Part shown: positions 11,772 through 64,000 of the stretch, piece by piece | Layout of the letters: the number at the start of each line of letters is the position of its first letter | Numbering within the stretch: the first letter of the stretch is position 1 | Source of the DNA: Vicinamibacteria bacterium | GTDB lineage: Bacteria > Acidobacteriota > Vicinamibacteria > Vicinamibacterales > JAENWD01 | NCBI GenBank assembly: GCA_016650245.1 | Contig: JAENWD010000139.1 | Coordinates: forward strand, 6,082-70,081 | Direction: 5' to 3' | DNA: 64,000 nucleotides | Program-made: the position numbers and the translations under genes | The notes under the pieces: generated by a model | Databases searched by the model: none | Told to the model about the DNA's origin: nothing | What the model saw: the letters and a program-made list of their open reading frames with translations, nothing else

Positions 11772-12467
11772 TCAGGATGACGCGCGCACGCCGACCAACG
11801 GTGCAACGGCACGCCAAATGGTCGCCGCCACGATGCGCTGGCCTTCGGCCGTCGGATGGATGCCGTCGGCCTGGTTGAGGGACGGCACGCCGGCCACACC
11901 CTCGAGGAAGAACGGGACCAACGTCACGTCGTAGGTCTGGGCCAGGTCGCGATACACGGCGCGGAAATCACGCGTGTAGGTCGCGCCGAAATTGGGCGGC
12001 GCTTCCATGCCGGCCAGCACCACGCGGACGTGCCGCGCCTGGGCAGTCTCGATGATTCGCGCCAGATTGGCGCGCAGGTCCTTGGGCGGCAGCCCACGCA
12101 GCCCGTCGTTGGCCCCCAGCGCAACAACCAGCACCTGCACGTCGCCCACCATCGACCAGTCCAGCCGTCGCAGTCCGCCCGCCGAGGTGTCTCCGGACAC
12201 GCCGGCGTTGGCGACCTCGTAATCGAACCCGGCCGCGCGCAGTCGGGCCGCAAGTTGTGCCGGATACGCCTCGTCGGACGACACGCCATAACCGGCGGTG
12301 AGGCTGTCGCCGAGACACACGATGCGGGGCCGGGCCGAAACCACCGGCGGGGCCGCCGGAGCCACAACGGCGGCCGGCACCGCCGGATCAACCGCCTGGC
12401 GGTCGGAGCAGGCCGCAGATGCCGCGGCGATCGACAGCCCCAGGCCAAGGGCGCAAGTCAGGCGCAT
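11772..12467 (-). CDS. SGNH/GDSL arylesterase-thioesterase (TesA-like), lipoprotein-type signal
   Basis: GDSLTAGYG block I, GANDGLRG block III and DGIHP block V. The N-terminal signal has a Cys (AAASAAC). TATACT lies 6 nt upstream of the ATG. Confidence 0.85.
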   Translation of the reverse strand: MRLTCALGLGLSIAAASAACSDRQAVDPAVPAAVVAPAAPPVVSARPRIVCLGDSLTAGYGVSSDEAYPAQLAARLRAAGFDYEVANAGVSGDTSAGGLRRLDWSMVGDVQVLVVALGANDGLRGLPPKDLRANLARIIETAQARHVRVVLAGMEAPPNFGATYTRDFRAVYRDLAQTYDVTLVPFFLEGVAGVPSLNQADGIHPTAEGQRIVAATIWRAVAPLVGVRASS

Positions 12468-12515
12468 GCCTACAGTATACGGAGGACGCGTGAGGACCCC
12501 TGCCGCCGCCGCGCT

Positions 12516-13280
12516 TCAGTCGACGGCGCGGACCAGGACGGCCGTGATGTTGTCGGTGCCGCCACGCTCGAGCGAGCTCGCCACCAGGCGGTCGCCCAGC
12601 TCGTCGAGCGGTCCTGGACCCGTCAACAGAATCTGGAGAGAGGCGTCGTCGAGGCCGCCGTACAGGCCGTCGCTGCAGAGCAGCAACTGCTCGCCGGCCG
12701 CGAGGGGGCGCTCACCGACTTCCACTTCGGTGTCTTCGCGGGCGCCAAGCACGTTGGTGAGCACGTGGCGCATCGGGTGAGTCGCCAGTTGGGCGCGGTC
12801 AAACTCCGGGTCGCGGGCCAGCACGGTGGCGACCCAGGAATCGTCGTGAGTGATCTGCTTTAGCGCGCCACCCGACAGGGCGTAGATCCGGCTGTCGCCG
12901 ACGCCGCAAAAGGTGAGCAAGGCGCCTTCGACCAGGGCGACGACAATGGTCGTGCCCATGCCGGCCAGGTCCGGCTTGTCTTCGCCGGCCTGATAGACCT
13001 TGCGATTGGCCAGGCGCACAGCCGTGACCAGCCGGTTGGCGTTCGTCGACAGCGTCGGATCGAAGCCAAACGGCCACGTCAGGTCGTGATCGCCCTTGCT
13101 GGACTCCAGAAAGCTCTGGACCGTCTCGACCGCCATCTTCGAGGCAACTTCGCCTGCCTGATGGCCGCCCATGCCGTCGGCAACCACAAACAGTCCCGCC
13201 GGTACATCCCACAGCAATGCGTCCTCATTATTCGGGCGGACGCGGCCCGGGTGTGTCACACCGTACGCCGTCAGCTTCAA
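12516..13280 (-). CDS. PP2C-family Ser/Thr protein phosphatase
   Basis: GRVRPNNEDAL, VADGMGGHQAGE, LCSDGLYG and GGTDNITAVLV motifs. I place the start at TTG 13280 (MKLTAYGVTH...). The longer track ORF to 13424 would overlap the divergent gene. Confidence 0.85.
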   Translation of the reverse strand: MKLTAYGVTHPGRVRPNNEDALLWDVPAGLFVVADGMGGHQAGEVASKMAVETVQSFLESSKGDHDLTWPFGFDPTLSTNANRLVTAVRLANRKVYQAGEDKPDLAGMGTTIVVALVEGALLTFCGVGDSRIYALSGGALKQITHDDSWVATVLARDPEFDRAQLATHPMRHVLTNVLGAREDTEVEVGERPLAAGEQLLLCSDGLYGGLDDASLQILLTGPGPLDELGDRLVASSLERGGTDNITAVLVRAVD

Positions 13281-13288
13281 GGCCCGCC

Positions 13289-13294
13289 ATTCTA
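13289..13294 (-). promoter_or_regulatory. -10-like TAGAAT, 8 nt upstream of the PP2C start
   Basis: Reverse complement of attcta, read directly. One of two -10-like boxes in the 63-bp divergent spacer. Confidence 0.3.
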
Positions 13295-13329
13295 ACGTAG
13301 GCTCAACCAGCCCAGCAAGGCGTAAGGCG

Positions 13330-13335
13330 TATACT
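13330..13335 (+). promoter_or_regulatory. -10-like TATACT, 8 nt upstream of the sigma-54 activator ATG
   Basis: Read directly. No Shine-Dalgarno sequence lies between the box and ATG 13344. Confidence 0.3.
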
Positions 13336-13343
13336 TCGTAGCC

Positions 13344-16289
13344 ATGGCAAGTGTGGCCCTTCAGCCCCTGCTGGCTCGCGCGCACAACGCGCTCGAGCGC
13401 GGCCGCGGTACCGACGCCACCCAATTACTCCAGCCAGCCCTTCGATCCAGCGCCCTCACCCGCGAGGACGAGCTGGCGCTCCGCGTGCTGCTCGCCGACG
13501 CCTGGCTGCTGCAAGATGACCTGACGCAAGCCAGTGCCAGCCTCGGTCGCCCCCCCGACTCCCTTCGTGAATCGTCGGTCCCGCCGACGACGCTGTCCAA
13601 CCTCTGGCGCCTGCACGGGCGCGTGGCCTCGACCCGCGGCGACCAGTCGCGCGCTGTCGCCCTGCACCTGAAGGCACTCAAGTACGCCGAGCTCGCGCAC
13701 GACCTGCGCGCCGTCGGCCTGGCCCACTTCGAGCTCGCGCGCTGCTACACGCTGGTCGGCGACAAGGCGACGGTCGCCGACCACTTCAGTGCAGCCGCCA
13801 CGGCCCTGCACGCCGTCGGCGACAAGCGCAACCTCGCCCTGGTTCACTCGCTGTCGGGCAGCGGCCTGGCCCAGCAAGGGCGATACGACGAGGCGCTGAT
13901 GGCCCTGCGGCAGGCCGAACGGCTCGCTCAGGCCGTGCAGGCTGACGACGTCGTGGCCATCGCGTGCGGCAACCAGGCCAACGTCGCGATGATCCGGCAT
14001 CGTTATGAGCAGGCGCTCACCTTGGCCGAGCGGGCCGTCGCGCTCCATCAGCAGTATCCGCCCGGGCACGGGCTGGCCGTGGCGCTTGGCACCCTGGGAC
14101 AGATCGCGATTCGCCTCGGGCAACTCTCACGCGCCGCCGAGGCGCTCACTGCCGCACTCTCCGTGCGCACGCCGCTGCTCTACCACGAGACGACGGGCGC
14201 GATTTTCGACAGTCTTGCCCAGATTCACCTGATTCGCGGCGACTACGACGCGTGTGCCGACGCGCTTGCGCAGGCCCGCGACGCGTTTGGCGTCTACGAC
14301 GCGCACACGCCGCGCTGGTACGACTGGTCGCTGCGACTCGTCCAAGCGCGACTGACATCACGTCGTGGCGACTTCGCTCGTGCCGTGGCACTGGCCGATG
14401 CGATCGCCGCCTCGCCTGGCGTGCCGCCAGCCGACCAGGTGCACGCGTACCTGATCGCGGCCGACGCCCTGGTGCACGCAGGGCAGCACGCCGAGGCGCA
14501 GCAGCGGCTGGACCGCACCGCCGCTCACGTGGACCCGCGCACGACGCCTGGCGCCTGGGGCGAGTACCTCCGGGTGCGAGGCGTGGTGGCCTCGGCGACA
14601 GGGCGCGCCACCGAGGGCTATCACGACTTGTCGCAGAGCGCGACGGTGTGCGATCTGCTCGGCGAACGCTATCAGTCGGCCCTCAGCCATTTGGCGCTCG
14701 GCCGCGTCGCCGCGCGTGCCGGCGCCCGCTCGCTGGCCGTACGTACGCTGGATCAGGCCGGCGCGATCTTCGGCGAGCTCGGTGCGGCCCGCGACGCGCG
14801 GGATGTCGAGGCGGCCCGCGCGCTGCTGGATCAGCCAGGCAGCGGGGAGTTCGTCGGCGCACCCGCGGATGCCGACGACGCGGTGGTGCGGCGCATCGTC
14901 GATGCGGCGGCGCTCCCTGAGTTGCTCGCGCGTGAGACCTCCTCCGCGCTGCTCGAGATCGCCGCGGCCGACGCGGCGGTGGTGCTGGTGCGCGACGGCC
15001 GCGACGAACCCCGCGTGGTGGCGCACGCCGGCTGCGATCTGGCGTTTGCGCGGTCGTTGGCGCGCGTGGCCGGACACAGCCAGCAGCTGGGCGACTTCCG
15101 CGTGATGGTCGAGCCGCTGGGGCACGAAGGGCCAGCCGCGCGGCTGGCCGCTCTTGCCGTGTCGCGGCCCCCCGGCCATCTGGTCGAGCGGCGCTTGCGC
15201 ATGGTGGCCGCCGTGGCGCGGCAGGGCTTCCAACTGTGTGAGGCGCGCGAGCGACCCGCGCGGGCCGCCGACGTGGTGGCGATCGAGCGGCCGCTGGAAC
15301 CGCTCATTCCCGGATTCCTCTGCGCCAGCGCCGCCATGGCACGGGTGGTCGACCAGATCAAGCGACTGCAGACCACCGCGCTGACCGTGCTGATCACCGG
15401 CGAAAGCGGCACCGGCAAGGAGCTGGTTGCGCGGGCCATCCACGCAGGCTCACCCCGGTCGAGCGCCACCTTCCTCCCCTTCAACTGCACGACCACCACG
15501 CGGGAGCTTGCCGACAGCCAGTTGTTCGGGCATCGCCGCGGCAGCTTCACCGGCGCGCACACCGACCAGCCCGGTTTAGTACGCTCGTCGGCCGGGGGCA
15601 CGCTGTTTCTGGACGAGATTGGCGACTTGCCAATTGACGTGCAGCCCAAGCTGCTGCGCTTCCTGGAGCAAGGCGAGATCATGCCGCTTGGCGAGACCCG
15701 CCCGCAGCACGTGGACGTGCGAGTCATTGCCGCCACAAACGCCGATCTCGAGCAGCGTGTCGGCGAAGGGCGGTTTCGCGAGGACCTGTTCTACCGGCTG
15801 AGCGTGATCCGGTTGCACGTGCCGCCGCTGCGCCAGCGTCGCGAGGAGATCCCGCACTTGAGCAGCTTCTTCCTGCGCGAGGCGTGTGAAGAACTCGCCA
15901 AGCCCGACGTCGAGTTGAGCCCCGACGTCCTCGATCTGTTCGCGCAGTTCCTCTGGCCAGGCAACGTCCGTCAACTCCGCAACGAAATCCGCCGCGCCGT
16001 GGCCATGAGCCTTGCCGGCACCTCCGTCACGCCCGACCTGTTGTCGCCCGAACTCGCGCGACTGGACAGCGACTCGCCCTCGCCCGGCGTGACCACAACC
16101 CGCACGACGGCGACGACCCTGGCCGTCGCCGTCGACCAACTGGAACGCGACCTGATCCGGAACGCCCTCGATCGCTCGGCGGGCAACATCTCCGAAACCG
16201 CGCGTCAGCTCGGGCTGACACGCCGTGGCCTGTATCTCAAGCTCCGGCGGCTGGGGTTCGACGCCCCTGCGCCGGTGGATATTAAGTAA
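13344..16289 (+). CDS. Sigma-54-dependent transcriptional activator with a long N-terminal TPR-like region and a GAF-like domain
   Basis: AAA+ core VLITGESGTGKELVARAIH, GSFTGA (a variant of GAFTGA), TLFLDEIGDL and WPGNVRQLRN. C-terminal Fis-type HTH (NISETARQLGLTRRGLYLKLRR). About 650 N-terminal residues are helical-repeat-like. Confidence 0.85.
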   Translation: MASVALQPLLARAHNALERGRGTDATQLLQPALRSSALTREDELALRVLLADAWLLQDDLTQASASLGRPPDSLRESSVPPTTLSNLWRLHGRVASTRGDQSRAVALHLKALKYAELAHDLRAVGLAHFELARCYTLVGDKATVADHFSAAATALHAVGDKRNLALVHSLSGSGLAQQGRYDEALMALRQAERLAQAVQADDVVAIACGNQANVAMIRHRYEQALTLAERAVALHQQYPPGHGLAVALGTLGQIAIRLGQLSRAAEALTAALSVRTPLLYHETTGAIFDSLAQIHLIRGDYDACADALAQARDAFGVYDAHTPRWYDWSLRLVQARLTSRRGDFARAVALADAIAASPGVPPADQVHAYLIAADALVHAGQHAEAQQRLDRTAAHVDPRTTPGAWGEYLRVRGVVASATGRATEGYHDLSQSATVCDLLGERYQSALSHLALGRVAARAGARSLAVRTLDQAGAIFGELGAARDARDVEAARALLDQPGSGEFVGAPADADDAVVRRIVDAAALPELLARETSSALLEIAAADAAVVLVRDGRDEPRVVAHAGCDLAFARSLARVAGHSQQLGDFRVMVEPLGHEGPAARLAALAVSRPPGHLVERRLRMVAAVARQGFQLCEARERPARAADVVAIERPLEPLIPGFLCASAAMARVVDQIKRLQTTALTVLITGESGTGKELVARAIHAGSPRSSATFLPFNCTTTTRELADSQLFGHRRGSFTGAHTDQPGLVRSSAGGTLFLDEIGDLPIDVQPKLLRFLEQGEIMPLGETRPQHVDVRVIAATNADLEQRVGEGRFREDLFYRLSVIRLHVPPLRQRREEIPHLSSFFLREACEELAKPDVELSPDVLDLFAQFLWPGNVRQLRNEIRRAVAMSLAGTSVTPDLLSPELARLDSDSPSPGVTTTRTTATTLAVAVDQLERDLIRNALDRSAGNISETARQLGLTRRGLYLKLRRLGFDAPAPVDIK

Positions 16290-16461
16290 TCAGCCAAAGC
16301 GTTGACTGGATACTTCCTATTCGTACGTCAACGAGATCTCGACGCCCGGAAACGACCGGCAACTGTCTCTAGATAAAACACTTCCGGCGATATTGCGCGG
16401 GGCCACGCGAGGGGCGGCGCAAGGGTTGATTCTCTTACGGGGTAGTTTCCGGGAGAACCTC

Positions 16462-16878
16462 GTGACGATTCGCCAAAATCAGACCGCCGCTCAGTCTCGC
16501 CGCCATCGCCGTTTGGAGCGTCAGCCGGTGAACGTCACTGGGCGCCTCACTTGGCGCGATGCGCGTGGCATTCCCCGATTTGCAACCGTCGTCACCCGCG
16601 ACGTCAGTGCTGACGGCGTCTACCTCGAATGCCGGGGCGGTGAGCCCATCCCCCTCTACCGGCTCGTGTTCCTGCAGATTGAGCGCGACGAGCGAGCGAC
16701 CACCGTCCTGCCGCCGGCGCTCAAGGATGGCCGTGTGCTTTCGGCCGTCTATCGGGTCGGCCCTTCCGAGCCGACCACCGGCATGCCGTCGGGCTACGCC
16801 CTGCGCCTGCTGGTCGACCCGCGAGCGATGGACATGGCGGCGGCTTCCGACCGGCGCGCCGCCCGTTCCATCGCCTGA
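16462..16878 (+). CDS. PilZ-domain protein
   Basis: RRHRRLER (RxxxR) and DVSADG (D/NxSxxG) motifs at PilZ spacing. GTG 16462 is preferred because GGGAG lies 6 nt upstream. The track ORF starts at TTG 16393. Confidence 0.7.
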   Translation: MTIRQNQTAAQSRRHRRLERQPVNVTGRLTWRDARGIPRFATVVTRDVSADGVYLECRGGEPIPLYRLVFLQIERDERATTVLPPALKDGRVLSAVYRVGPSEPTTGMPSGYALRLLVDPRAMDMAAASDRRAARSIA

Positions 16879-16883
16879 GCGTT

Positions 16884-20095: not shown

Positions 20096-20206
20096 GGCCG
20101 CGTCTGATCCTCCTCGCGCGCTTCAAGCGACGCGCGCAAACGCGAGAATAGCATACCGACTCGTGCGGCACGGGCGGCCGCACCCAGACGCGCTAGACTC
20201 GATCGC

Positions 20207-20890
20207 GTGACTCCCGAGATCGTGGCGGAACAGGTCGCCGAGGCATTTGCCGGCGCGGTGATGCGCGCCGCGACGGCCGGACGACGATTCCGGTGTGCGG
20301 TCCCCGGTGGGTCCATCGCCAGCCGCGTCTTTCCTCGAATGGCGCGTCAAGCCCTCCCGTGGTCGAGCATCGACGTCTTCCTCGCTGACGAACGGCTCGT
20401 CGCCCCCGATCACCCGGACTCGAACGCGCGCGCAGTCCGCGAGCAGTGGCTGGACCACCTCGATACGCTGCGCCCGTCGTTTCACCCGATGACGACGTCC
20501 GGCGGCAGCGCCGAAGCCGCCGCGCGGCTGGCGTCGCTCACGTTGTGCGAGGTGGCAGGGACGCCGCCGCGCCTCGATCTGGTCATGCTTGGCGTGGGGC
20601 CGGACGGCCACGTCGCATCGCTCTTCCCAGGGCTCCATGGCTGGCGCCAGTCGTCAGCGTGGGTGCTGGCGGTGCACGGCGCGCCCAAGCCGCCGCCGGA
20701 CCGACTGTCCCTGGGGCTGGCCGCACTCGCCGCCTCGCACGAGATCTGGTTTGTCGCCTTCGGAGCGGAGAAGGCGGCGGCGATTGCGGAGGCACGCGCC
20801 GTGCCGCACTCGCCGCTGCCGGTGGCCGTCGTCGCGCGCAGCGGTCCGCGCGTGCGGTGGTTTCTCGATCGGGAGGCTAGCGCGTCTTGA
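20207..20890 (+). CDS. pgl: 6-phosphogluconolactonase
   Basis: [14 protein letters not shown] and [15 protein letters not shown] motifs. GTG start with TAGACT 7 nt upstream. Confidence 0.85.
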
Positions 20891-21350: not shown

Positions 21351-22286
21351 CTATGCAAATGCGTCGCGCAGCAGCGCGTAGCTCTTGGGCACCGCCGTAG
21401 CTGGGTCCTCCTTGCCCTCCATTTCGAGCGAGACCCAGCCGGAGAATCCGGCGGTACGCAGGATGCCGGCGATCCGCGTGTAGTCCAGGTCCAGTGTGTA
21501 CCACTCGCCGCCACCGTAATACGTCTTGGCCTGCACGATCGACGCGTACGGCGCCAACGTCGTGATGCCGGGGTAGGGGTCCTCAGGGTAGTTGCCCGTG
21601 TCCAGGTTCACACCCAGCCATGGCGAGTTGACCGCCTTGTGGATCCGGATGACGTTTTCCACCTTGGTCGTCAGGCCCCAGTGGTTCTCAATCATCATCG
21701 CGACGCCTTCCTTCTGCGCGGTCGGCAGGCAGGCGTTGATGGACTCGATGACCCAGTCGAAGGCGTTGTTGTCGGTGAATCCCGCGATCGGCGGCTCTTC
21801 GCCCTTGACCTTCATCAGATCGTCGAACGACGCGATGGTGTTCCAGCGGCCCGAGTTGAGCCGGATGGACGGGATGCCGAGCCGGGCGGCCAGCTCGAGG
21901 CAGCGCTTCGTGTGGTCGATGTCCTTCTGCCGTTCGGCGAGGTCTGGCGTCACGAAATCCTGATGGATGGAGAGCATCACGAGATCGACACCCGCGCGAA
22001 AGGCGCGCTGTTTGAGGCCGTTGACATAGGCCGCGCCTTCCTCGGGCATCTGGCGGTGCAGGATCTCGACGCCGTCGAATCCGACCCGCGCCGCATCGTC
22101 AATCACATGCTCGATCGGCGTGCGCTCCCCGCGGAAGTGCCAATACGAGTAGCTCGAGACCGCCAGCTTGACGGGTCGGGCCTTCGGTACGGGCCTGGGG
22201 CCGGGCGATTGTGCATGCGCGGCAACAGAACTCAGTGGCAACGCGGCAAGGCCCGCGCCGAGGAAGGAGCGTCGTGTGAGGGACAT
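21351..22286 (-). CDS. Sugar phosphate isomerase/epimerase (xylose-isomerase-like TIM barrel) with TAT-type signal
   Basis: [12 protein letters not shown] twin-arginine signal, then GFDGVEI...IRLNSG...ENHWG...NLDTGN, the pattern of AP-endonuclease-2/TIM-barrel proteins. TAAGCT lies 7 nt upstream of the ATG. Confidence 0.8.
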
Positions 22287-22319
22287 TTGCCGGAGCTTAG
22301 TCGTCCGAGCCGGCCAAGA

Positions 22320-22801: not shown

Positions 22802-22869
22802 GGAGCCGCCCCCTCCCGGCGCCGCTGATCGCGACATGACTCGTGCAGACTTACGTACACAATAGTCCG

Positions 22870-29697: not shown

Positions 29698-30225
29698 TCA
29701 CGGACGCCACTGCTCGCGTACGCGTGCGTACAGCAACTGATCGATCAACGCGCCGTCCTTGAAGGCGCTGTGCCGCAAACGGCCTTCCAGGGCGAACCCT
29801 GCCTTTTCGAGCACACGAGCGGACGCGCGGTTGAACGCGAAGACGTGCGCGTGGAGTCGCGCGAGATTGAAGCGCTCCAGCGCCCACGGCACAAACGCCT
29901 GCACGGCCCCCGACATCACGCCCCGTCCCCAGTGCGCCTCTCCGAGCCAGTAGCCCACCTCGGCGTCAACCCGCTCGACGTCGGGGCGAACCACCAGGCC
30001 GATGCCCCCGACGGCCTCTCCGTTCACTTCGACCGCAAAGTCGGTCGCCGGCACGGCGCGCGCGCAGTGGCGCACCCACGCGTCTGCGTCCTCGATGGTG
30101 TAGGGCGACGGGAACCGGTCGCGCAGGTTGGCCCAGACACGGCGGTTGTTTGCGTGCCGCGCCAGCGCACTCGCATCGTCTGGACGCCAGGCGCGGACCG
30201 CGCCGCCGGGAAACGGAAGATGCAT
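29698..30225 (-). CDS. GNAT N-acetyltransferase (RimJ/RimL-like)
   Basis: GYWLGEAHWGRGVMSGAV...NRASARVLEKAGF motifs. 175 aa. Confidence 0.85.
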   Translation of the reverse strand: MHLPFPGGAVRAWRPDDASALARHANNRRVWANLRDRFPSPYTIEDADAWVRHCARAVPATDFAVEVNGEAVGGIGLVVRPDVERVDAEVGYWLGEAHWGRGVMSGAVQAFVPWALERFNLARLHAHVFAFNRASARVLEKAGFALEGRLRHSAFKDGALIDQLLYARVREQWRP

Positions 30226-30288
30226 GCGAGGTGGATTATAGGTCCGTCCAATTTTCGGGCCGAGCGAAGTGGGATAAGGTTGTCAGCC

Positions 30289-40792: not shown

Positions 40793-40815
40793 ATCCCCCG
40801 TGATATACATCTCCC

Positions 40816-45155: not shown

Positions 45156-45162
45156 GCCGCGC

Positions 45163-45345
45163 ATGCCTGACGCTCCCAAGCCTTCCCGCGTCACCACCTT
45201 GCAGCCATTGCTCACCACACGCCCGTTTTCCGACGCCAACGAGAAAGTGGTCTGCGAGCGCTGCGGCGGAGCCAACGTCTACCGGATGCACGCCGTCTGG
45301 CGGTGCTCGGATTGCGGCTTCAAGACCGACTGCTGCGGCTGGTAG
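45163..45345 (+). CDS. Small zinc-ribbon protein (60 aa) at the head of the liu/mcc cluster
   Basis: CERC-x14-CSDC plus a terminal CC. Good third-position GC. It ends 10 nt before the carboxyltransferase ATG. Confidence 0.5.
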   Translation: MPDAPKPSRVTTLQPLLTTRPFSDANEKVVCERCGGANVYRMHAVWRCSDCGFKTDCCGW

Positions 45346-52146: not shown

Positions 52147-52181
52147 GGATACTCCGAAGAAATGGAGCATCACGATAGGGG

Positions 52182-52195
52182 GCCCCGTGCGGGGC
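52182..52195 (-). terminator. Hairpin GCCCCG-tg-CGGGGC between a 47-aa ORF and the kinase gene
   Basis: Read directly, 3 nt after the stop at 52198. The loop is very short, so the effective stem is 5 bp. Confidence 0.25.
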
Positions 52196-52197
52196 TG

Positions 52198-52341
52198 TCA
52201 AACGACCGGCGAGGGCTCGAGTGAATCGGGAGGAGTCGTCGCGAGTGGCGAAGCCGGGCCGGACCAATCAAACGGGACGCGCCCGTGTTCGTCGTCGGCC
52301 GTGAGCAGCAGCAGGGGGAGCAACCAGTCTGCGAAAGCCAT
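52198..52341 (-). CDS. Candidate small ORF (47 aa)
   Basis: My own reading of the tail of track ORF 52198..52755 (MAFADWLLPLLLLTADDEHGRV...). Moderate third-position GC. TATACC lies 7 nt upstream of the ATG and a hairpin follows the stop. Weak call. Confidence 0.25.
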   Translation of the reverse strand: MAFADWLLPLLLLTADDEHGRVPFDWSGPASPLATTPPDSLEPSPVV

Positions 52342-52382
52342 CCGCCGGGGTATATCGGTCCCGGGAGGCCTCGGCTGTAGCG

Positions 52383-54519: not shown

Positions 54520-55592
54520 ACCTTCCGCAGTTTCGTCACCCGTCCGACCTCGACCCATTCGACCACGAAGATGTTGCCGGCGCGATCGAAGGTCGCGCCG
54601 TGCGGGCACACGAACTTGCCGACCGGGAAGCCCTCGCGCGGCCCCGTGCGCAGCGCCTTCCACGAGTCTGGCCCGTTGTCGCCCAGCTCGGCGACAACCG
54701 CGTTCCTGCGATCCACGAGCGTGACCTTCGCAAACAGGTCGGGCACGACCATGACGCCCTGGTGCTCGCTGAAGTGGCAGGGGTGCGGAAAGCCCTCGTC
54801 AAAACCCTGATGTGTGCCGTCGAGCGAGAAGCGCTGCAGCCGGCGATTGCTGCGATCGGCGACCAGGATCACGGGCGTTGCCGTGCGCGTGTCGACGATG
54901 AGACCATGCGGGCAATCCAACTGGCCCGCCGCCGTGCCCTTGCCTCCGAACGTGCGCAGGTACTTGCCCGAGGCGTCGTACTGGTTGATATAGCTCGACC
55001 CATAGCCGTCGCCGACGTAGACATCGCCATTGGGCGCCACGGCGACGTTGGTCGGCGAGTACTTCACGCCAGGCGTCCCATCGGCGTTCACCGGATACTG
55101 CGCCGACTCTTTCGGGTAGCCGAGCTGCCAGACGACCTCACCTGCCGGGGTCACCTTTGTGACGGTGCCCCGCTTGGTGTCGCACAGGATGAGAAACTCC
55201 TGTTTCCCTTCGCGCACGATGTGGAGGCCGTGCGCGCCGCCTTCGAACTCTTTGCCCCAACTGCGCACGAAACGGCCCTTGGCATCGAAGACCACCATCG
55301 TGTCGTGCCGATCGCTTGACGCGTGCACCGTGTGATGCACGTAGATGCGGCCCTGCGCGTCTTCGGCGACCCCGTGCGTGTTGCCGTACTTGAGCCCGGC
55401 CGGCAATTCCCCCCAGTCGTGGTAGACCTCATAGGTGAACTCGCCGCTGCCGATGACGGGCCGCTTGGCGCCGGCCTTGTGGGTCGCGTGCAACAGCGTA
55501 GGACCGGCCACTGACACGGCCAGGCCGGTGCCGATCGCGCCAAAGAACTCGCGGCGGGTCGGGCGTGACGACGGATGTGACGAGCGGCTCAT
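54516..55592 (-). CDS. NHL-repeat / six-bladed beta-propeller protein with TAT-type signal
   Basis: SRPTRREFFGAIGTGLAV signal. Repeated ...G.IYV.D...G..., PHGL and VADRSNRRLQRF motifs. I chose ATG 55592, with AAGGAG 5 nt upstream. Confidence 0.8.
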   Translation of the reverse strand: MSRSSHPSSRPTRREFFGAIGTGLAVSVAGPTLLHATHKAGAKRPVIGSGEFTYEVYHDWGELPAGLKYGNTHGVAEDAQGRIYVHHTVHASSDRHDTMVVFDAKGRFVRSWGKEFEGGAHGLHIVREGKQEFLILCDTKRGTVTKVTPAGEVVWQLGYPKESAQYPVNADGTPGVKYSPTNVAVAPNGDVYVGDGYGSSYINQYDASGKYLRTFGGKGTAAGQLDCPHGLIVDTRTATPVILVADRSNRRLQRFSLDGTHQGFDEGFPHPCHFSEHQGVMVVPDLFAKVTLVDRRNAVVAELGDNGPDSWKALRTGPREGFPVGKFVCPHGATFDRAGNIFVVEWVEVGRVTKLRKV

Positions 55593-55653
55593 GAGGGCTC
55601 CTTGCGCGCTAATGTTACGGCCAAGGCGGCCGCCTATCAAGTTACGACCGACG

Positions 55654-56322
55654 ATGCCAACGATCGAACGTCTGCCCACACCTGTCGGGGTGCTCACGGT
55701 CGTCACGAACCCACACACGCTGCTGGCGATTCACTTTGGCGACGCACCTGGTCTCGCCGCCTCATCCGACACGCCGTCGCCGCTGCATGAGGACGTCCGC
55801 GTGCGGCTTGCCGCTTACTTCGACGGCGATCGGACAGCGATCGACGAGATCCCCGTCGAGCCGGGTGGCACGCCTTTCCAGCGCCAGGTGTGGCTGATGC
55901 TCCGCCGCATCCGCGCGGGCACCACGTGGAGCTACCGCCAACTGGCCGAGCGTGTGGATCGCCCCGCCGCCGTTCGCGCCGTGGGAGCGGCCAACGGCGC
56001 CAATCCGATTCCGATCGTCCTGCCCTGTCATCGTGTCGTCGGCAGCGACGGGCGGCTCGTGGGCTACGGCGGTGGGATGGAGCGCGCTCGTGGCGTGGTA
56101 GAGTCCGCGACATGTCGAGGGTTGTTGCCGCCGCGCTCTGCGTCGTGTTCGTCCCTGCGCTCGTGCATACCCAGGCACCGGCGGGAGTCACCGCCACGCC
56201 GGCGCCAGTCTTCACCGATGCGGCGCGCCGCGAAAGGCTGGCAGGCGCCTTCGCGGCAATCCGCGAGAGCATGCCCGAGGCCGCCAAACAGATCGGCGCA
56301 CCGGGCCTGGCGTGGGGAGTGA
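55654..56322 (+). CDS. ogt: Methylated-DNA--protein-cysteine methyltransferase; 3' end doubtful
   Basis: TPFQRQVW...SYRQLAE...AVRAVGAANGANPIPIVLPCHRVVGSDGRLVGYGGGMERARGVVE. After this the frame runs 66 more Arg/Pro/Ser-rich codons into the next gene. Confidence 0.8.
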   Translation: MPTIERLPTPVGVLTVVTNPHTLLAIHFGDAPGLAASSDTPSPLHEDVRVRLAAYFDGDRTAIDEIPVEPGGTPFQRQVWLMLRRIRAGTTWSYRQLAERVDRPAAVRAVGAANGANPIPIVLPCHRVVGSDGRLVGYGGGMERARGVVESATCRGLLPPRSASCSSLRSCIPRHRRESPPRRRQSSPMRRAAKGWQAPSRQSARACPRPPNRSAHRAWRGE

Positions 56323-57962
56323 TCGTCGACGGCGAGCTGGCGGCGTCAGGCGCCGTGGGGCTGCGTGACGTGGAGGCGAACCAGCCCGCCACGCCGCAGT
56401 CGATCTTCCGAATCGCCTCGATGAGCAAGAGTTTCACCGCGCTGGCGATCCTCGCGCTGCGCGACGAGGGCAAGCTGTCGCTCGACGACGCAGTCACCAG
56501 CCACATCCCCGAGTTTGCCGGCGTCGCGCTGCCAACCAAAGACGCGCCCGCCATCACCATCCGGCACCTGCTGACGCACTCGGAAGGGTTTCCCGAGGAC
56601 AACCCCTGGGGCGATCGCCAACTCGCGATCCCCGACAAGACGATGAGCGAGTGGCTGAAACAGGGGCTGCCCTTTTCGACCTCGCCGGGCACCGCGTTTG
56701 AGTACTCGAACTACGGCTTCGCGCTGCTGGGCCGCATCGTCTCCAACGTGTCGGGCATGCCGTTCGGCGACTATATCCGCAGTCGGATCCTGACCCCGCT
56801 CGGCATGCGATCCACGCACTGGGAGACCAGTCAGGTACCTGCCGATCGCATCGCGCACGGGTACCGTCGCAACGGCGAGCGCTGGATCAAGGAGGCACCG
56901 CTGGCGCACGGATCGTTTGGCTCGATGGGGGGGCTCTACACGTCGACCGAGGACCTGGCGCGCTATGTGGCGTTCATGTTGTCGGCGTGGCCGCCGCGAG
57001 ACGACGCCGAGACCGGCCCTGTGCGCCGCAGTTCGGTGCGCGAGATGCAGCAGGGCCAGCGGCATTCCGGGCTGGCCGTCTTCCGTACGGCGCCCGAGGC
57101 ACCGCTGACGGTGCGCGCCAGCGCCTATGCCTACGGGCTGGGCTCGACACAAGACTGCCGGTTCCGCATCGCGGTCGCACACGGCGGCGGCCTGCCCGGC
57201 TACGGGTCTACCATGCAATGGCTGCCGGACTACGGAATCGGTGTCATCGTCTTCGCCAACCTCACCTACGCCGGCGCGGGAGGCATCGGCCGCGCCATCC
57301 TCGAGAAGCTCGCGGCAACCGGAGCGTTGAAGCCGCGTACGTTGCCCCCTTCGGCGCCTCTGCTCGAAACGCGCGCGGCGGTGACGGCACTGGTGAATCA
57401 CTGGAGGGATGCCGGCCTGGAAGCCATCTCGGCCGACAACCTGCTGCTCGACCGACCACTCGACGCGCGGCGGCAGGAGGTGACGACGCTGCGCGAGTCG
57501 CTGGGGACCTGCGCGCCCGAAGGCGACATGGACGCCGAGAACTGGCTGCGCGGATCGTTCAAGCTGGCCTGTCAGCGGGGCTGGCTGCAGGTCGCCTTCA
57601 CGCTGGCGCCCACCACGCCACCGCGCGTGCAGTACCTGTCATTCACTGAGGGGCGTCCGCTGTCTCCGACCCTGACAACCGCTGCCCGACGGCTGGCGTC
57701 TGCCACCACCGGGCCTGATGACGACCTGGCCTCCCTGTTGGCGCCCTCGCTCGACGGCGCCGCACTGGCGCGCCAGCTTGCCGCGTTCCGATCGGACTAC
57801 GGCGCCTGCACGATCGGTGACACGTTGAGCGGCAACGGATCGACAAACGCACGCGTGCGTCTGTCGTGCGAGCGCGGAAAAGCCGATCTGGCCCTGCGCG
57901 CCGCCGCCGACGGAATGCTCGAGCGCGTGACGCTGAGCGGCGCTGAGCCGTGCGTGCCCTAA
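56112..57962 (+). CDS. Serine hydrolase (beta-lactamase/PBP4-like family) with a C-terminal extra domain
   Basis: Signal peptide, SxxK (ASMSKSF), YSNYGF and HGGGLPGY motifs. TAGAGT lies 7 nt upstream of the ATG. Confidence 0.85.
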   Translation: MSRVVAAALCVVFVPALVHTQAPAGVTATPAPVFTDAARRERLAGAFAAIRESMPEAAKQIGAPGLAWGVIVDGELAASGAVGLRDVEANQPATPQSIFRIASMSKSFTALAILALRDEGKLSLDDAVTSHIPEFAGVALPTKDAPAITIRHLLTHSEGFPEDNPWGDRQLAIPDKTMSEWLKQGLPFSTSPGTAFEYSNYGFALLGRIVSNVSGMPFGDYIRSRILTPLGMRSTHWETSQVPADRIAHGYRRNGERWIKEAPLAHGSFGSMGGLYTSTEDLARYVAFMLSAWPPRDDAETGPVRRSSVREMQQGQRHSGLAVFRTAPEAPLTVRASAYAYGLGSTQDCRFRIAVAHGGGLPGYGSTMQWLPDYGIGVIVFANLTYAGAGGIGRAILEKLAATGALKPRTLPPSAPLLETRAAVTALVNHWRDAGLEAISADNLLLDRPLDARRQEVTTLRESLGTCAPEGDMDAENWLRGSFKLACQRGWLQVAFTLAPTTPPRVQYLSFTEGRPLSPTLTTAARRLASATTGPDDDLASLLAPSLDGAALARQLAAFRSDYGACTIGDTLSGNGSTNARVRLSCERGKADLALRAAADGMLERVTLSGAEPCVP

Positions 57963-58017
57963 CTACTCGCCGGGTGCTTCAGGCGCGTCAGGTGCGTCGT
58001 GCGGTAAGATTTCCAAG

Positions 58018-58413
58018 GTGGTCACACACACGCCCGAGCAACTCAAGGCGCTTCGCGATCGGTTGCTCCAGCTTCACAAGACGCTGCTCGATTCGGATCG
58101 GGCGGCGTACGAACGCGCCTACGGGCCAGTGGGTTCTCGCGGCGAATGGCTGCAACTGGTGCTCGGCCACGAGCACTTCGCGTGGCTCCGGCCATTCTCA
58201 GGCCTCATCGTGCGCATCGACGAATGGCTGGCGGGCGACCAGCGACCGCAGGAAGAGCTGACGGCCGTGGTGAAAGAAACCGATCGGCTCACCTCGATCA
58301 GCGCGTCCACCGAGCAACGGGCGTTGCGCTACCGCAAGTCCATCGACCGGTCGGCCGACGCCGCGGTCGCACATGCGGCGGTGCGCGACGCCCTCGACCA
58401 CACGAAGAGCTGA
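58018..58413 (+). CDS. Hypothetical helical protein (131 aa)
   Basis: Good third-position GC. GTG start with TAAGAT 7 nt upstream. No family recognised. Confidence 0.6.
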   Translation: MVTHTPEQLKALRDRLLQLHKTLLDSDRAAYERAYGPVGSRGEWLQLVLGHEHFAWLRPFSGLIVRIDEWLAGDQRPQEELTAVVKETDRLTSISASTEQRALRYRKSIDRSADAAVAHAAVRDALDHTKS

Positions 58414-58414
58414 G

Positions 58415-58608
58415 CTAGTCCTGACAGCGGGTGCAGTTGGACGGGTCGCGCCTGACCCCGCTCCCAGCGCCGTGCCGCCCGCAAAGGCGAGGAGCCATCC
58501 GGCGTGGCAGGGGCATGTCAGGATGGCGAGCCACACGCCGAGCCGGTTGGTGCGGGTGACGGGACGCTGTTCGAGCTCGGAGATCCAGGCGCGCGCGCGG
58601 GACACCAT
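58415..58608 (-). pseudogene. Small CPC-motif membrane protein, MerE-like; reading frame broken at a G4 run (or an assembly indel)
   Basis: ATG 58608 gives MVSRARAWISELEQRPVTRTNRLGVWLAILTCPCHAGWLLAFAGGTALGAG (compare MerE LTCPCH). Coding-like codon bias then switches frame at 58456-58459 to ...VRRDPSNCTRCQD-TAG (58415). The span is 194 nt, and one extra G would give a 64-aa ORF. Confidence 0.4.
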
Positions 58609-58652
58609 CGAGTGATTGTACAGGCTGCGCCAATCGGATACCATCCCAGCCC

Positions 58653-60314
58653 ATGCGCGCTTGCATGTGGATAGTCGCCCTGGCCCTGGTCGCCGCGCCG
58701 TCTCGACACGTGGTCGCCCGTGAGGGCAGTACCGGTGCCGCCGCTGACCCGCGTGCTCGCGCCGAGCGCTTCGAGCGTGCCGTCGGCGCAGCCGACCGGG
58801 TGTTGCGCGCCTGGCTGGCCGAGGCCGACCCAAAGACGCTGTTGCTACCGGACCGGCTCACCGGCCCCGGTGACGGACGCGCCGTGGGCAACCGCACCCG
58901 CGAGTACACGCCGCACAACTCCGGCGCCGATCTGTATCCGTACCTTATTCTCACCGCGCACCTGACGGCGCCCGATCTGCTCGACGGCCGTCTGCTCGAG
59001 ATGCTGCGCAACGAAGTGCGCTACACGACGTCCTCCGAGCGCGGGGTGCCAGGCGCACTGAATCTGGACACGGGAGTCGCCGGCCCGCCAAGTTTGTTCG
59101 GTGCCGGCGAGTACGCCAAAGACGGGCTGATCACCGTCACCGAGTACCTGGGCCGGACCGCGTGGTACGCCCGCATGGTGGACATGATCGCCGACGCCAT
59201 GACGCTGGGCCCGGTCGATTCCCGCTTCGGCAAGCTGCCGGCGTCCGACTCGGAACTCAACGGCGACTACCTGCAAGTGCTGCCCCGCCTGGCACTGATG
59301 ACCGGCGACGACCGCTTTCTCGACTGGGGACGCCGGATCGCCGACGCGTACATCGACGAGGTGTTGCCCGGCAGCCACGGCGTGCCCAGCGGCCAGTGGA
59401 ATTTCACGACGCACAAAGGCGATGGCACGCTTCGACTCCGCGATCACGGCAACGAGCTGGTGGTCGGCCTGGTGCTCCAGTACGCGCTCGAGCACTACAA
59501 GCAGACGCCTCGCGCAGCGAAGTGGAGGCCGGTCATCGCGCGCATGCTCGACCGCATCCTCGCATCCGCCAATCCCGACGGCCTGCTCTACAACATCGTC
59601 GACACCGAGACGCTCACGCCGAAGACCGACCGGCTGTCGGACAACTGGGGCTACATCTATGGCGCCGTCTATACCTTCTATCAATGCACCGGGGAGACGC
59701 GCTACAAGGACGCGGTGGTGCGCGTGCTGCGCAACCTGCCGAAGTACCGCAACTACGTGTGGGAGCCGCGCAACATCCCCGATCTGCCGCTGGGGTCGTT
59801 TGACGGCTACGCGGACACGATCGAAAGTGCCATCTACCTGGTGAACCGCGAGCCCGTGCCCGAGGCCCTGGGCTGGATCGAATCCGAAATGGATGTGTTG
59901 CTGAACATGCAGCGTCCCGACGGGCACTTCGAGTACTGGTACGGCGAGGGCAACTTCAATCGCACCGCCCTGCTCTACGCGCTCATGCAGAGCCGAGGCG
60001 TACGCCCGGCCGTGTGGCAGCACGGCGTCGGCATCGGGGCCGTATCTGAGGGTGACGGCCTTCGGCTCCACGTGAAGGCGCCCGCCCCGTTGCGCGTGCA
60101 GTTCGACTACGCGCGGCACCGGCGTGTGATGAACTTCGATCGCAACTACGTGCGTCTCAACGAGTTTCCCGAGTGGTTCGTCGTTGACGACAACACGCGC
60201 TACGACCTGCGCCCGGAAGGCGGCGGCGCCACCATGCAGCGGCTCGGCGCGGAGTTGATCCGGGGGATCACACTGTCGCCTGGCGAGTGGATCGTGTCGC
60301 CTGTAGGCGACTGA
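58653..60314 (+). CDS. Secreted hypothetical protein (553 aa), possibly an alpha/alpha-toroid enzyme-like fold
   Basis: Signal peptide and good codon bias. The recurrent aromatic/Gly motifs (NWGYIYGAVYTFY, DGHFEYWYGEGNFNRTALLYAL) remind me of six-hairpin glycosidase-like proteins, but I cannot name a family. Confidence 0.65.
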   Translation: MRACMWIVALALVAAPSRHVVAREGSTGAAADPRARAERFERAVGAADRVLRAWLAEADPKTLLLPDRLTGPGDGRAVGNRTREYTPHNSGADLYPYLILTAHLTAPDLLDGRLLEMLRNEVRYTTSSERGVPGALNLDTGVAGPPSLFGAGEYAKDGLITVTEYLGRTAWYARMVDMIADAMTLGPVDSRFGKLPASDSELNGDYLQVLPRLALMTGDDRFLDWGRRIADAYIDEVLPGSHGVPSGQWNFTTHKGDGTLRLRDHGNELVVGLVLQYALEHYKQTPRAAKWRPVIARMLDRILASANPDGLLYNIVDTETLTPKTDRLSDNWGYIYGAVYTFYQCTGETRYKDAVVRVLRNLPKYRNYVWEPRNIPDLPLGSFDGYADTIESAIYLVNREPVPEALGWIESEMDVLLNMQRPDGHFEYWYGEGNFNRTALLYALMQSRGVRPAVWQHGVGIGAVSEGDGLRLHVKAPAPLRVQFDYARHRRVMNFDRNYVRLNEFPEWFVVDDNTRYDLRPEGGGATMQRLGAELIRGITLSPGEWIVSPVGD

Positions 60315-61703: not shown

Positions 61704-61936
61704 ATATTCTCCTTGGCGCGAGCCGCCGGCGCCTGAAGCGCCGCCAACCGACCCGCGGGCGGCATGATAGCGCGCAACGCGCTGCGGCCGGGAAGAAACG
61801 TCGGGGCCGAGGCGTGGCCCGGAGGGGACGAGCCAGGTGCGCCCCTTGATGTGTAGCTGCGCCAGCAGCGATGATGCGCGTGACGCCGCGGATCAGCCTT
61901 TGGGTCCCCGGCCTTCTGCCTTCGGAGGACTGTGTG

Positions 61937-62992
61937 ATGATCGCCCGACGCGCCCCACTCGCCCTACTCGCCCTACTCGCCCTGCCCGCCCTCGCCGTTG
62001 CGCAGGGGCCGCCGCTGGCCCTGCCTGAAGCCAGCCAGGCCGCCACGGCCTCGCAGCGCATCGGGTTGACCGACATCACGGTGAAGTACCACCGGCCCGC
62101 CGTGAAGCAGCGCACGGTCTGGGGCGCCCTGGTGCCGTACGACCAGGTGTGGCGCGCCGGCGCCAACCAGAACACCGTGCTGTCGTGTTCGACGCCATTT
62201 TCCGTCGGTGGCCAGCAGCTCCCCGCCGGCGACTACGGCCTCCACATGATCCCGACCAAGACCGAGTGGACGGTGATCCTCAACAAGGAGTCGACGGCCT
62301 GGGGCAGCTTCTTCTATGACCAGGCCAAGGATGCCGTCCGCTTCACCGCCCGCCCGCAGACGGGTGACTTTCAGGAACACCTGGCCTACACCTTTGAGTC
62401 TCCAGGGCCGTCCAGCGTGACGTTGACGCTGCACTGGGAGAACGTCGCGCTCCTGATTCCAATCGCCGTGGACACTCCCGCTGTGGTCTCGGACAACCTG
62501 CAGCAGCAACTGCACAACTTGCCTGGGTTCTTCTGGCAGGGTTTCGCGCAAGCGGCCTCGTGGAGCGCCCGCAACAACGCAAACCTCGACCGAGCGGCAA
62601 CCTGGGCCGACCGCGCCATCGCGATGAACCGCAACTACCAGACGCTGCGCGCCAAAGCGCTCGTCCTCGACCGCAAAGGTGATGCGACCGCCGCCGCCGC
62701 GCTGCGCGACGACGCCCTGAAGCTGGCGACAGAAGCCGACATCAACGCCTACGGCTACGAGTTGATGAGTGCCGGTAAGATCGACGACGCCATCGTGATC
62801 TTCCGCAGCAACGTCGCCGACCACCCGGGATCGTGGAACGCCTACGACAGCCTGGGCGAGGCGCTCGCGCAGAAAGGACAGACCGCCGACGCGGTGGCGC
62901 AATACACCAAAGCCCTGCAGATGGTCGGCGACGACACCAACAAGACAAGGATTCGAGGGATCCTGGCCACGCTAGCTGCTAACCGGAAGTAA
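61937..62992 (+). CDS. DUF2911-domain protein with C-terminal TPR repeats
   Basis: Signal peptide, then RIGLTDITVKYHRPAVKQRTVWGALVPYDQVWRAGANQNT...LPAGDYGLHMIP (DUF2911 signature as I recall it). TPR-like C-terminus. ATG 61937 has GGAGG 8 nt upstream. Confidence 0.8.
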   Translation: MIARRAPLALLALLALPALAVAQGPPLALPEASQAATASQRIGLTDITVKYHRPAVKQRTVWGALVPYDQVWRAGANQNTVLSCSTPFSVGGQQLPAGDYGLHMIPTKTEWTVILNKESTAWGSFFYDQAKDAVRFTARPQTGDFQEHLAYTFESPGPSSVTLTLHWENVALLIPIAVDTPAVVSDNLQQQLHNLPGFFWQGFAQAASWSARNNANLDRAATWADRAIAMNRNYQTLRAKALVLDRKGDATAAAALRDDALKLATEADINAYGYELMSAGKIDDAIVIFRSNVADHPGSWNAYDSLGEALAQKGQTADAVAQYTKALQMVGDDTNKTRIRGILATLAANRK

Positions 62993-63046
62993 CGGGCCCA
63001 CCGGTCTCGTCCACCGCGTGAAACCGACCGGAGAGCCGGGCGACGA

Positions 63047-63052
63047 TATACT
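63047..63052 (+). promoter_or_regulatory. -10-like TATACT, 6 nt upstream of ATG 63059
   Basis: Read directly, with no Shine-Dalgarno sequence in between. Confidence 0.3.
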
Positions 63053-63058
63053 GCGCCC

Positions 63059-64000
63059 ATGTTGCGCGCCTCCCTGCTCACGCTCACCCTGGCGGCCACC
63101 GTCGTCGCCGTGCCGACCGCCGACGACGCCACACGCGTACCCGGCATCGAAGACCTGCTGACACTGAGGACTGTTGGCGGCGTCCAGATCTCGCCAGACG
63201 GCAAGTGGGTCGTCTACGCGGTCACCGAGACGGACCTCGACCAGGACGCCTACGTCAACCAGCTGTTCGTGGTCCCTGCCGTCGGCGGCCCGTCGATCCA
63301 GCTGACGCGTGGGGCCAAGTCGGCCACCAGTGCGCAATGGTCGCCCGACAGCCAGTGGGTCGCGTTCCTCAGCCCGCGCGCCAGCGACAAGAACCAGATC
63401 TTTGCCATCCGTCCTGACGGCGGCGAAGCGGTGCAGCTGACGAAAAGCGAGACGGCCGTCAACGGCTTCGAGTGGTCAGTCGACGGCGCGCGTATCGCGT
63501 ATCTGGCCGCCGATGCCGAGTCGAAGGAGCGCAAGGCGCGCAAGGACCGCATGGGCGACTTCGAGGTCGTCCGCAGCGAGTACGTCTTCACGCACATCTG
63601 GACGTTCGACGTCGCCGAGGCGCTGAAAGTGCCGGTCGCGGGCACGCAACGCACCAAGGGCAGCACGTTCAATGTCGGCTCGCTGGCCTGGTCACCGGAC
63701 GGAGCCACGCTGGCATTCCACGCGACGAAGAACCCAGACCTGGTACAGAGTCACACAGCCGACGTGTACACCCTCGACCTGGCCTCGGACAAAGTGACGC
63801 CGCTGGTGACCCAGGCCGGTCCCGATACGGGCCCGCGATGGTCTCCCGACGGATCGACGATCGCGTTCGAGTCGGCAATGGGCCGGCCGGATTTTTTCCA
63901 CGCCAACGGACGCATTGCGGTCGTCGCCGCGTCAGGTGGCATGCCCGTGTCGGTCACCGACGCGTTCGACGAAGACCCGAACCTGATCGACTGGACCGGT
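63059..64000 (+). CDS. S9-family peptidase (prolyl oligopeptidase / acylaminoacyl-peptidase-like), N-terminal beta-propeller part; continues past window end
   Basis: My own translation; it is absent from the track because no stop falls in the window. Signal peptide, then repeated WSPDG-type PD40 motifs (ISPDGKWVVY, WSPDSQWVAF, WSVDGARIAY, WSPDGATLAF, WSPDGSTIAF). Confidence 0.75.
   Translation, partial: MLRASLLTLTLAATVVAVPTADDATRVPGIEDLLTLRTVGGVQISPDGKWVVYAVTETDLDQDAYVNQLFVVPAVGGPSIQLTRGAKSATSAQWSPDSQWVAFLSPRASDKNQIFAIRPDGGEAVQLTKSETAVNGFEWSVDGARIAYLAADAESKERKARKDRMGDFEVVRSEYVFTHIWTFDVAEALKVPVAGTQRTKGSTFNVGSLAWSPDGATLAFHATKNPDLVQSHTADVYTLDLASDKVTPLVTQAGPDTGPRWSPDGSTIAFESAMGRPDFFHANGRIAVVAASGGMPVSVTDAFDEDPNLIDWTG

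Follow-up and report, generated by a model that had tools for sequence, protein, structure and literature searches.

In this study we analysed a 64,000-nucleotide stretch of a Vicinamibacteria metagenome-assembled genome (MAG), contig JAENWD010000139.1 (hereafter the window, numbered from its first letter; G+C content 68% across its whole length), in which a series of genes carry a hexamer of the form TAnnnT 6-8 nucleotides (nt) upstream of the start codon. We propose, with a probability of roughly 0.8, that these hexamers are the -10 boxes of leaderless or near-leaderless mRNAs, which would be used alongside genes led by a Shine-Dalgarno sequence. A preliminary description of the window had spoken of widespread leaderless mRNAs. 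Leaderless transcription is indeed the reading best supported by the geometry, the statistics and the conservation of the sites, all of them read from the DNA itself, but "widespread" must be taken to mean roughly a third of the transcription units and not a majority. In the mechanism that we envisage, the hexamers would be -10 elements of promoters recognised by the housekeeping sigma factor (sigma-70 family), and RNA polymerase would begin transcription on the first base of the start codon or no more than 1-3 nt away. Such an mRNA would lack both a 5' leader and a Shine-Dalgarno site; its 5'-terminal AUG or GUG would be bound directly by a ribosome loaded with initiator tRNA. In the window, about one transcription unit in three would operate in this mode; the others, like operon-internal genes, would have ordinary leaders with Shine-Dalgarno sequences of the GGAG type. 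Where transcription starts and how the 5'-terminal AUG is bound are, in this scheme, modelled on Mycobacterium and Deinococcus, in which leaderless genes of this kind have been demonstrated by experiment.

The 45 nt upstream of each proposed start were inspected, and the twelve main sites of the preliminary description were all found in place, with hexamer, spacer and start codon as described there. Along the window, these are TATACT, 6 nt before the ATG at 12467 of a GDSL arylesterase with a signal peptide (12465-12479, minus strand); TAGAAT, 8 nt before the TTG at 13280 of a PP2C phosphatase (13278-13294, minus), the gene of which is divergent from that at 13344; TATACT, 8 nt before the ATG at 13344 of a 981-amino-acid (aa) TPR and sigma-54 activator protein (13330-13346, plus); TAGACT, 7 nt before the GTG at 20207 of a 6-phosphogluconolactonase (20194-20209, plus); TAAGCT and TATGCT, each 7 nt before the ATG of one of two xylose-isomerase-like TIM-barrel proteins with twin-arginine signals, at 22286 (22284-22299, minus) and 36682 (36669-36684, plus), respectively; TACAAT, 7 nt before the ATG at 38469 of a 122-aa hypothetical protein (38467-38482, minus); TATAAT, 7 nt before the ATG at 45163 of a 60-aa zinc-ribbon protein with a carboxyltransferase gene downstream (45150-45165, plus); TAGAGT, 7 nt before the ATG at 56112 of a beta-lactamase-family protein with a signal peptide (56099-56114, plus); TAAGAT, 7 nt before the GTG at 58018 of a conserved 131-aa hypothetical protein (58005-58020, plus); TACAAT, 6 nt before the ATG at 58608 of a MerE-like small membrane protein, frameshifted in the window (58606-58620, minus); and TATACT, 6 nt before the ATG at 63059 of a PD40/WD40 beta-propeller protein with a signal peptide (63047-63061, plus). 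The start codons are thus nine ATG, two GTG and, at 13280, one TTG, and most of the genes behind the listed starts are credible. All twelve genes had been described as first in their operon. Divergent orientation bears this out for six of them, while the orientation of neighbouring genes does not demonstrate it for the rest: those at 12467, 22286, 38469, 58018 and 63059 follow a same-strand gene at a distance of 33-94 nt, from which read-through is possible, and the gene at 58608 is preceded by the convergent gene at 58018.

We then asked how TAnnnT hexamers are placed relative to start codons in general. They are rare, as the preliminary description had noted: the window holds 143 on both strands, against about 500 expected from base composition. 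In a curated list of 58 genes, which reduces to 40 putative heads of transcription units, 44 hexamers have a same-strand start no more than 150 nt downstream, and for 15 of these the spacer is 6-8 nt (four at 6, seven at 7 and four at 8). One more is found at 9 nt, and the remaining 28 are spread over 0-150 nt. The signal is carried by about 14-15 of the 40 heads (roughly 35%), or some 22-26% of genes. When the analysis was centred on the hexamers and starts opening long frames rich in G or C at third codon positions were counted at spacers of 0-60 nt, a peak was obtained at 6-9 nt in the window, and six control hexamer patterns gave none there. Starts were also chosen blind to the motif, solely by maximal codon-usage log-likelihood. 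Among these, 5 of 51 starts in the window have a hexamer at 6-8 nt, where 0.84 were expected (P=0.0017). The same procedure, applied to 80 related loci (1.57 Mb, with the gene used for retrieval left out of the start counts), gave 56 of 839 against 12-13 expected (P ~1e-18 to 1e-20). In the related loci spacers 0-5 are virtually empty and the onset at 6 is sharp, and with motif-blind starts the control patterns TANNN[ACG] and [ACG]ANNNT have flat position profiles. Hexamer-bearing starts in these loci are also richer in ATG (45 of 56, 80%, as opposed to 49% of the remaining starts). A rule that takes the first start after a stop gave 2, 4 and 2 matches at spacers 6, 7 and 8 in the window and nearly none elsewhere. 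It was dropped since its spacer-6 peak in the pooled relatives is partly an artefact: a TAA or TAG inside the hexamer can itself be an in-frame stop, which creates a 3-nt periodicity and inflates spacer 6 under such a rule. The excess holds when hexamers containing a stop codon are analysed separately.

The putative -10 hexamers, together with their spacing, are conserved in orthologues at nine of the ten testable main sites (13344, 13280, 20207, 22286, 12467, 45163, 56112, 58018 and 58608), while the flanks diverge. For 36682 and 63059, as for the weaker site at 52341 described below, no orthologues were present among the fetched loci. The activator protein starting at 13344 (13344-16289) has orthologues of 57-91% identity, the source MAGs of which are almost exclusively labelled Vicinamibacteria, Vicinamibacterales or Acidobacteriota. 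Read by eye, roughly 70 of the 79 listed orthologues from Vicinamibacteria, and so the large majority, have gTATACT 6-8 nt before a GTG or ATG, in a region that is otherwise diverged. At the divergent PP2C gene, a -10-like hexamer (TAGTAT, TAGAAT, TATAAT or TAAGAT) is found 8-12 nt before the start in roughly 45, again by eye, of about 50 genomes; the start is TTG in close relatives and ATG in distant ones, and about a dozen close relatives keep the TTG 8-9 nt after a TAG[A/T]AT box. Elsewhere, eight of the nine orthologues of 20207 have TAnnnT at spacer 7, four of the six of 22286 have TAAGCT, and in six of the seven of 45163 the start is preceded, at 5-9 nt, by [T/G/C]ATAAT. At 12467 the signal is retained in close relatives: L050 and L001 keep the hexamer, and L010, L004 and L009 have TAAAAT or TAAGAT at spacer 6. 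Of the metagenome loci retrieved through the carboxyltransferase gene (L081-L160), many come from other taxa and few are informative. For 56112, 58018 and 58608, the orthologue starts rest on gene calls made by others, on syntenic contigs: TAAAGT, TAGAGT and TACAGT stand 7, 8 and 8 nt before the orthologues of 56112; TAGAAT, TATGAT and TACAAT 6, 6 and 10 nt before those of 58018; and TACATT and TACACT 6 and 8 nt before those of 58608 in L163 and L165.

A tandem motif, TGGATACT-TGGTATACT, is conserved in more distant Vicinamibacterales (L012-L066 and others) about 10-35 nt upstream of the activator start (locus position ~9970-10000), and the second of its two copies is the -10 box of the activator gene. 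The equivalent interval of the window, 13281-13343, holds one copy only. Upstream of the motif, after another 6-10 nt or so, comes ATTATA, the TATAAT belonging to the divergent PP2C gene. The motif TGGATACT-TGGTATACT could consist of tandem -10 elements or could be the binding site of a regulator.

The site at 58608 required a separate comparison. Compared with L161, a near-identical contig, the window is without 70 nt between 58455 and 58456, resulting in a frameshift in a MerE-family gene with a CPC motif (58415-58608, minus), of which relatives carry an intact version of 86-91 aa (L163, L165). The frameshift creates a false open reading frame (ORF) of 136 aa at 58608 on the minus strand, in which coding signal is nearly absent and which shares 216 nt with the 58018 gene. 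On account of this poor coding potential and overlap it had been set aside as spurious, a verdict overturned by comparison with L161, L163 and L165. Since intact MerE-like relatives exist, the start at 58608 and its TACAAT box are genuine and the gene is broken in the window. The 70-nt deletion could reflect a real pseudogene or an assembly error.

Three additional sites, absent from the preliminary description, have a similar arrangement: TATAAT, 9 nt before the ATG at 30225 of a GNAT acetyltransferase (30223-30240, minus); TAAGGT, 8 nt before the GTG at 30289 of a divergent CBS/MgtE-like transporter gene (30275-30291, plus); and TACCAT, 8 nt before the ATG at 58653 of a 553-aa protein encoded divergently from 58608 (58639-58655, plus), orthologues of which have TAGGAT at 7 nt and TACCAT at 6 nt. 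Four weaker sites had also been described, and these are present: CACAAT, 6 nt before the ATG at 22870 (22858-22872, plus), which is CACAAT at 6 nt in L050 and TATAGT at 10 nt in L002; CATAAT, 8 nt before the ATG at 40702 of a DUF255/thioredoxin-like protein (40700-40716, minus), with GATAAT, CATAAT and TATCAT at 7, 6 and 7 nt in orthologues; TATACA, 6 nt before the ATG at 40816 of a DJ-1/PfpI protein (40804-40818, plus), with TACAAT at 7 nt in the L092 orthologue; and TATACC, 7 nt before the ATG at 52341 of a 47-aa ORF (52339-52354, minus). The last is a doubtful gene, with no coding signal, no Pfam match and no homologue among the fetched loci.

Four divergent gene pairs are separated by 31-63 nt (13281-13343, 30226-30288, 36651-36681 and 58609-58652). 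Three of them have back-to-back -10 boxes, each 6-9 nt from its own start codon, with the consequence that the upstream region of each promoter falls inside the neighbouring gene. In the fourth, the gene at 36682 on the plus strand carries the box, and 31 nt separate this gene from a divergent iron-permease gene (36650, minus) with a GGAGG Shine-Dalgarno sequence.

Whether the proposed codons are the true starts was assessed by several types of evidence. Firstly, the listed start is the codon-likelihood optimum at 12467, 13280, 20207, 38469, 58018 and 63059, and lies 1.2-2.3 log units from the optimum at 13344, 56112 and 36682. Secondly, the proteins starting at 12467, 22286, 36682, 56112 and 63059 open with signal or twin-arginine peptides, and the 58018 protein has 167 homologues, mostly of 129-131 aa. 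Thirdly, we compared the starts with the NCBI annotation of this MAG (locus tags JJE40_*, proteins MBK52968xx), in which the proteins are identical in start for 12467, 20207, 22286, 38469, 45163 and 58018. Two differ. The NCBI PP2C protein (gene 12516-13280, minus) has 233 instead of 254 aa and starts 21 codons downstream of a conserved N-terminus. The NCBI beta-lactamase-family protein (gene 56112-57962, plus) has 563 instead of 616 aa, i.e. it is 53 codons shorter and loses its signal peptide. Orthologue N-termini favour the longer start at both genes; the in-frame stretch upstream of 56112 is strongly non-coding (log-likelihood ratio -30) and that upstream of 13280 looks non-coding. The NCBI starts of these two genes are probably mis-called. 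The proposal that the hexamer pattern can guide the choice of start codons is borne out here, where it departs from NCBI and is backed by conserved N-termini and coding potential.

The same evidence bears on the strongest of the alternatives, that the hexamers are real -10 boxes but that a sizeable subset of the genes are not leaderless, either because the true start is further downstream or because a leader of 2-10 nt is translated with neither a Shine-Dalgarno sequence nor a 5'-terminal codon. Spacers of 8-12 nt in many orthologues of 13280 and 58018, the TTG at 13280, an alternative ATG for 36682 (the second in-frame ATG, at 36670, lies within the hexamer), the downstream NCBI starts at 13280 and 56112 and a shoulder of the hexamer distribution extending to about 17 nt in related loci would all be accommodated by it. 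However, the proposed codons are where signal and twin-arginine peptides and conserved N-termini begin and where the coding likelihood peaks, ATG is enriched among hexamer-bearing starts, and the sharp onset at spacer 6 with a modal spacer of 6-7 fits transcription starting on the codon. We consider this alternative unlikely.

Next, we examined the sites for Shine-Dalgarno sequences and other promoter features. None of GGAG, GAGG or AGGA occurs at a spacer of 3-12 nt at the twelve main sites, in agreement with the preliminary description; at 36682 a GGGAG is present, but on the upstream side of the hexamer and 14 nt from the ATG. The genes that had been named there as led by a Shine-Dalgarno sequence do have one (examples in the window are 1747, 36650, 52146, 55592, 61700 and 61937), and in other genes of the related loci such motifs peak at spacers of 5-8 nt. 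Two initiation modes, as had been suggested, thus appear to coexist in the same genomes, one with leaderless-type hexamers and one led by Shine-Dalgarno sequences. Vicinamibacteria have a canonical anti-Shine-Dalgarno sequence, and 41% of their mRNAs have a Shine-Dalgarno site (PMC10783764). Two genes of the window illustrate the leadered arrangement by contrast: a histidine kinase gene with TTGACA, 18 nt, TATCGT and then 25 nt containing GGAG before the ATG at 52146 (52144-52201, minus), and an NHL-repeat protein gene with TTGATA, 17 nt, TAACAT and then 19 nt containing AGGAG before the ATG at 55592 (55590-55640, minus). The orthologue of the histidine kinase gene in L165 (1952-1995, minus) has the same promoter, but there 8 nt separate the hexamer from the ATG; the kinase orthologues have apparently switched between a leadered and a leaderless arrangement through an insertion or deletion.

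At the main sites, positions T1, A2 and T6 are present in all twelve, and the controls indicate that T1 and T6 are both needed. An extended -10 (TGn) is weakly enriched in the pooled sites (T = 0.38 at -3, G = 0.54 at -2) and found at two of the twelve window sites (38469 and 56112). Partial, conserved -35 elements (TTGnnn, 18 nt upstream) occur only at 13280 (TTGCTG, conserved in close relatives) and 22286 (TTGATC). Promoters consisting of a -10 element only are usual in leaderless-rich, GC-rich bacteria. Together, the free middle positions, the invariant T1, A2 and T6, the distance of 6-8 nt, the weak TGn and the bias towards ATG fit a -10 element of the sigma-70 family that would place the transcription start on the codon.

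These features also bear on a second alternative, that the hexamers are not promoters at all but belong to a longer leader as an A/U-rich enhancer of translation, or are the operator of a regulator. Most sites are without a -35 box, as such a reading would have it, and the TATACT of the activator gene sits, in distant relatives, in the tandem motif TGGATACT-TGGTATACT, a possible binding site. Yet the requirement for T1, A2 and T6 with a free middle is the signature of a sigma-70 -10 element, the hexamers vary from gene to gene (TATACT, TAGACT, TAAGCT, TACAAT and others), and the same class of hexamer accompanies a TTGACA -35 box at leadered genes. Moreover, the identical motif of Deinococcus is experimentally a -10 element (PMC12340547). 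Non-promoter functions are highly improbable on this evidence. Chance, finally, for which one might invoke the greater frequency of AT-rich hexamers in intergenic DNA, starts picked to fit (the earlier reader used the pattern to choose some of them), the four of 16 sites that deviate from TAnnnT and the stop-codon artefact that inflates spacer 6 under the rule of the first start after a stop, is held to be refuted, since the excess survives motif-blind starts, separate analysis of stop-containing hexamers and gene calls made by others, and the pattern is conserved over dozens of genomes.

Several observations weigh against our preferred reading, that of -10 boxes serving leaderless or near-leaderless mRNAs. 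At 38469, the tenth testable site, the geometry is not conserved in the three orthologues found. A scan for promoters with -35 and -10 elements of the Escherichia coli type passes no site, and the pooled sites of the related loci yield no -35 consensus. Only 6.7% of the motif-blind starts in those loci carry the hexamer, a figure that is a lower bound as the start calls are crude, and the loci are orthologous regions, so that counts made in them are not fully independent. Spacers of 8-9 nt, as at 13280, 13344 and 30225, put the likely transcription start 1-3 nt before the codon, and TTG, the start codon at 13280, supports leaderless initiation poorly in model systems. In the literature that could be searched we found neither transcription-start mapping for any member of the Acidobacteriota nor a paper on leaderless transcription in Vicinamibacteria; for Acidobacteria, searches on these subjects led to a 2011 survey (PMC3160421) and nothing else.

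A further proposal goes beyond the preferred reading: Vicinamibacteria might be a leaderless-rich lineage within the Acidobacteriota that tolerates UUG as a start, and in which orthologues move between leaderless and Shine-Dalgarno modes through small insertions and deletions. We advance this tentatively, as a possibility with the odds against it. The least ordinary observations in our data would be those behind it, namely the conserved TTG 8-9 nt after the PP2C -10 box and the apparent switching between leadered and leaderless arrangements of the orthologues of the kinase gene at 52146. The current rule is that leaderless mRNAs need a 5' AUG or GUG; a translated UUG at the 5' end or within 3 nt of it, if true, would exceed this rule.

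Two other features of the window are recorded here. A single tRNA-Leu gene (anticodon TAA; 37584-37673, minus) has the 36682 gene on one side and a small ORF (37850-38095) on the other. The gap following the activator gene (16290-16883, about 590 nt) holds just a weak ORF of 161 aa (16393-16878, plus), with low coding likelihood and no Pfam match.

Vicinamibacteria are abundant in soil, what is known of them comes almost entirely from MAGs, and their start codons are those of automatic gene callers. The value of the pattern is practical more than conceptual, and it opens no new question. A -10 box placed at the start codon corrects start codons, as at the PP2C and beta-lactamase-family genes, and locates the promoters of about one transcription unit in three without experiment, which is relevant to expressing these genes in other hosts. 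It also adds a data point on the spread of leaderless initiation beyond Actinobacteria and Deinococcus-Thermus.

How, then, does the pattern compare with known systems? The canonical sigma-70 promoter of E. coli shares T1, A2 and T6 of the -10 element, but its TTGACA-like -35 element at 16-18 nt was not found at our sites, two of which have a partial one. Archaeal leaderless transcription (group D of GeneMarkS-2) has in common with the proposed mode a transcription start at the start codon and no Shine-Dalgarno sequence; the archaeal element, however, is a TATA box about 26 nt upstream, whereas that of Vicinamibacteria is a -10 hexamer at 6-8 nt. A "-10-motif adjacent to ORFs" was reportedly described for Deinococcus-Thermus by de Groot et al. 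in 2014. In Deinococcus, Zhong et al. (2025) found that about a third of genes have TANNNT at 6-7 base pairs (bp) from the ORF, on its upstream side, and that the others have GGAG; the TANNNT motif is conserved in orthologues and was used to correct start codons (PMC12340547). The window resembles Deinococcus in motif geometry, in the share of about a third, in GGAG as second motif, in conservation among orthologues and in the correction of starts. It differs in that differential RNA sequencing (dRNA-seq), reporter assays and proteogenomics stand behind the Deinococcus pattern, while the Vicinamibacteria pattern, in another phylum, is known from sequence alone. In GeneMarkS-2, group C genomes are modelled with their Pribnow box at 6-8 nt from the gene start and with 25-50% of their transcripts leaderless, Mycobacterium tuberculosis being the example (PMC6028130). 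The members given there are mainly Actinobacteria and Deinococcus-Thermus, and Acidobacteria are unmentioned in the main text (PMC6028130). The closest precedent within the phylum is the survey of Zheng et al. (2011), in which TANNNT about 10-12 bp upstream of the start was the mark of a leaderless gene, found in 3 of 3 Acidobacteria genomes and in 9.7-19.4% of their genes (PMC3160421). Our sites agree with the "TA-led" genes of that survey in the position of TANNNT (there counted from its first T), in the missing Shine-Dalgarno sequence and in the high-GC form of the motif with an uninformative middle (PMC3160421). The survey predates any Vicinamibacteria genome, and the share in the window (about 22-26% of genes and 35% of transcription units), which comes from 64 kb only, is at or slightly above its Acidobacteria range (PMC3160421). 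The pattern is of a kind well described in other GC-rich bacteria; it had already been predicted for this phylum, and the annotation pipeline makes implicit use of it.

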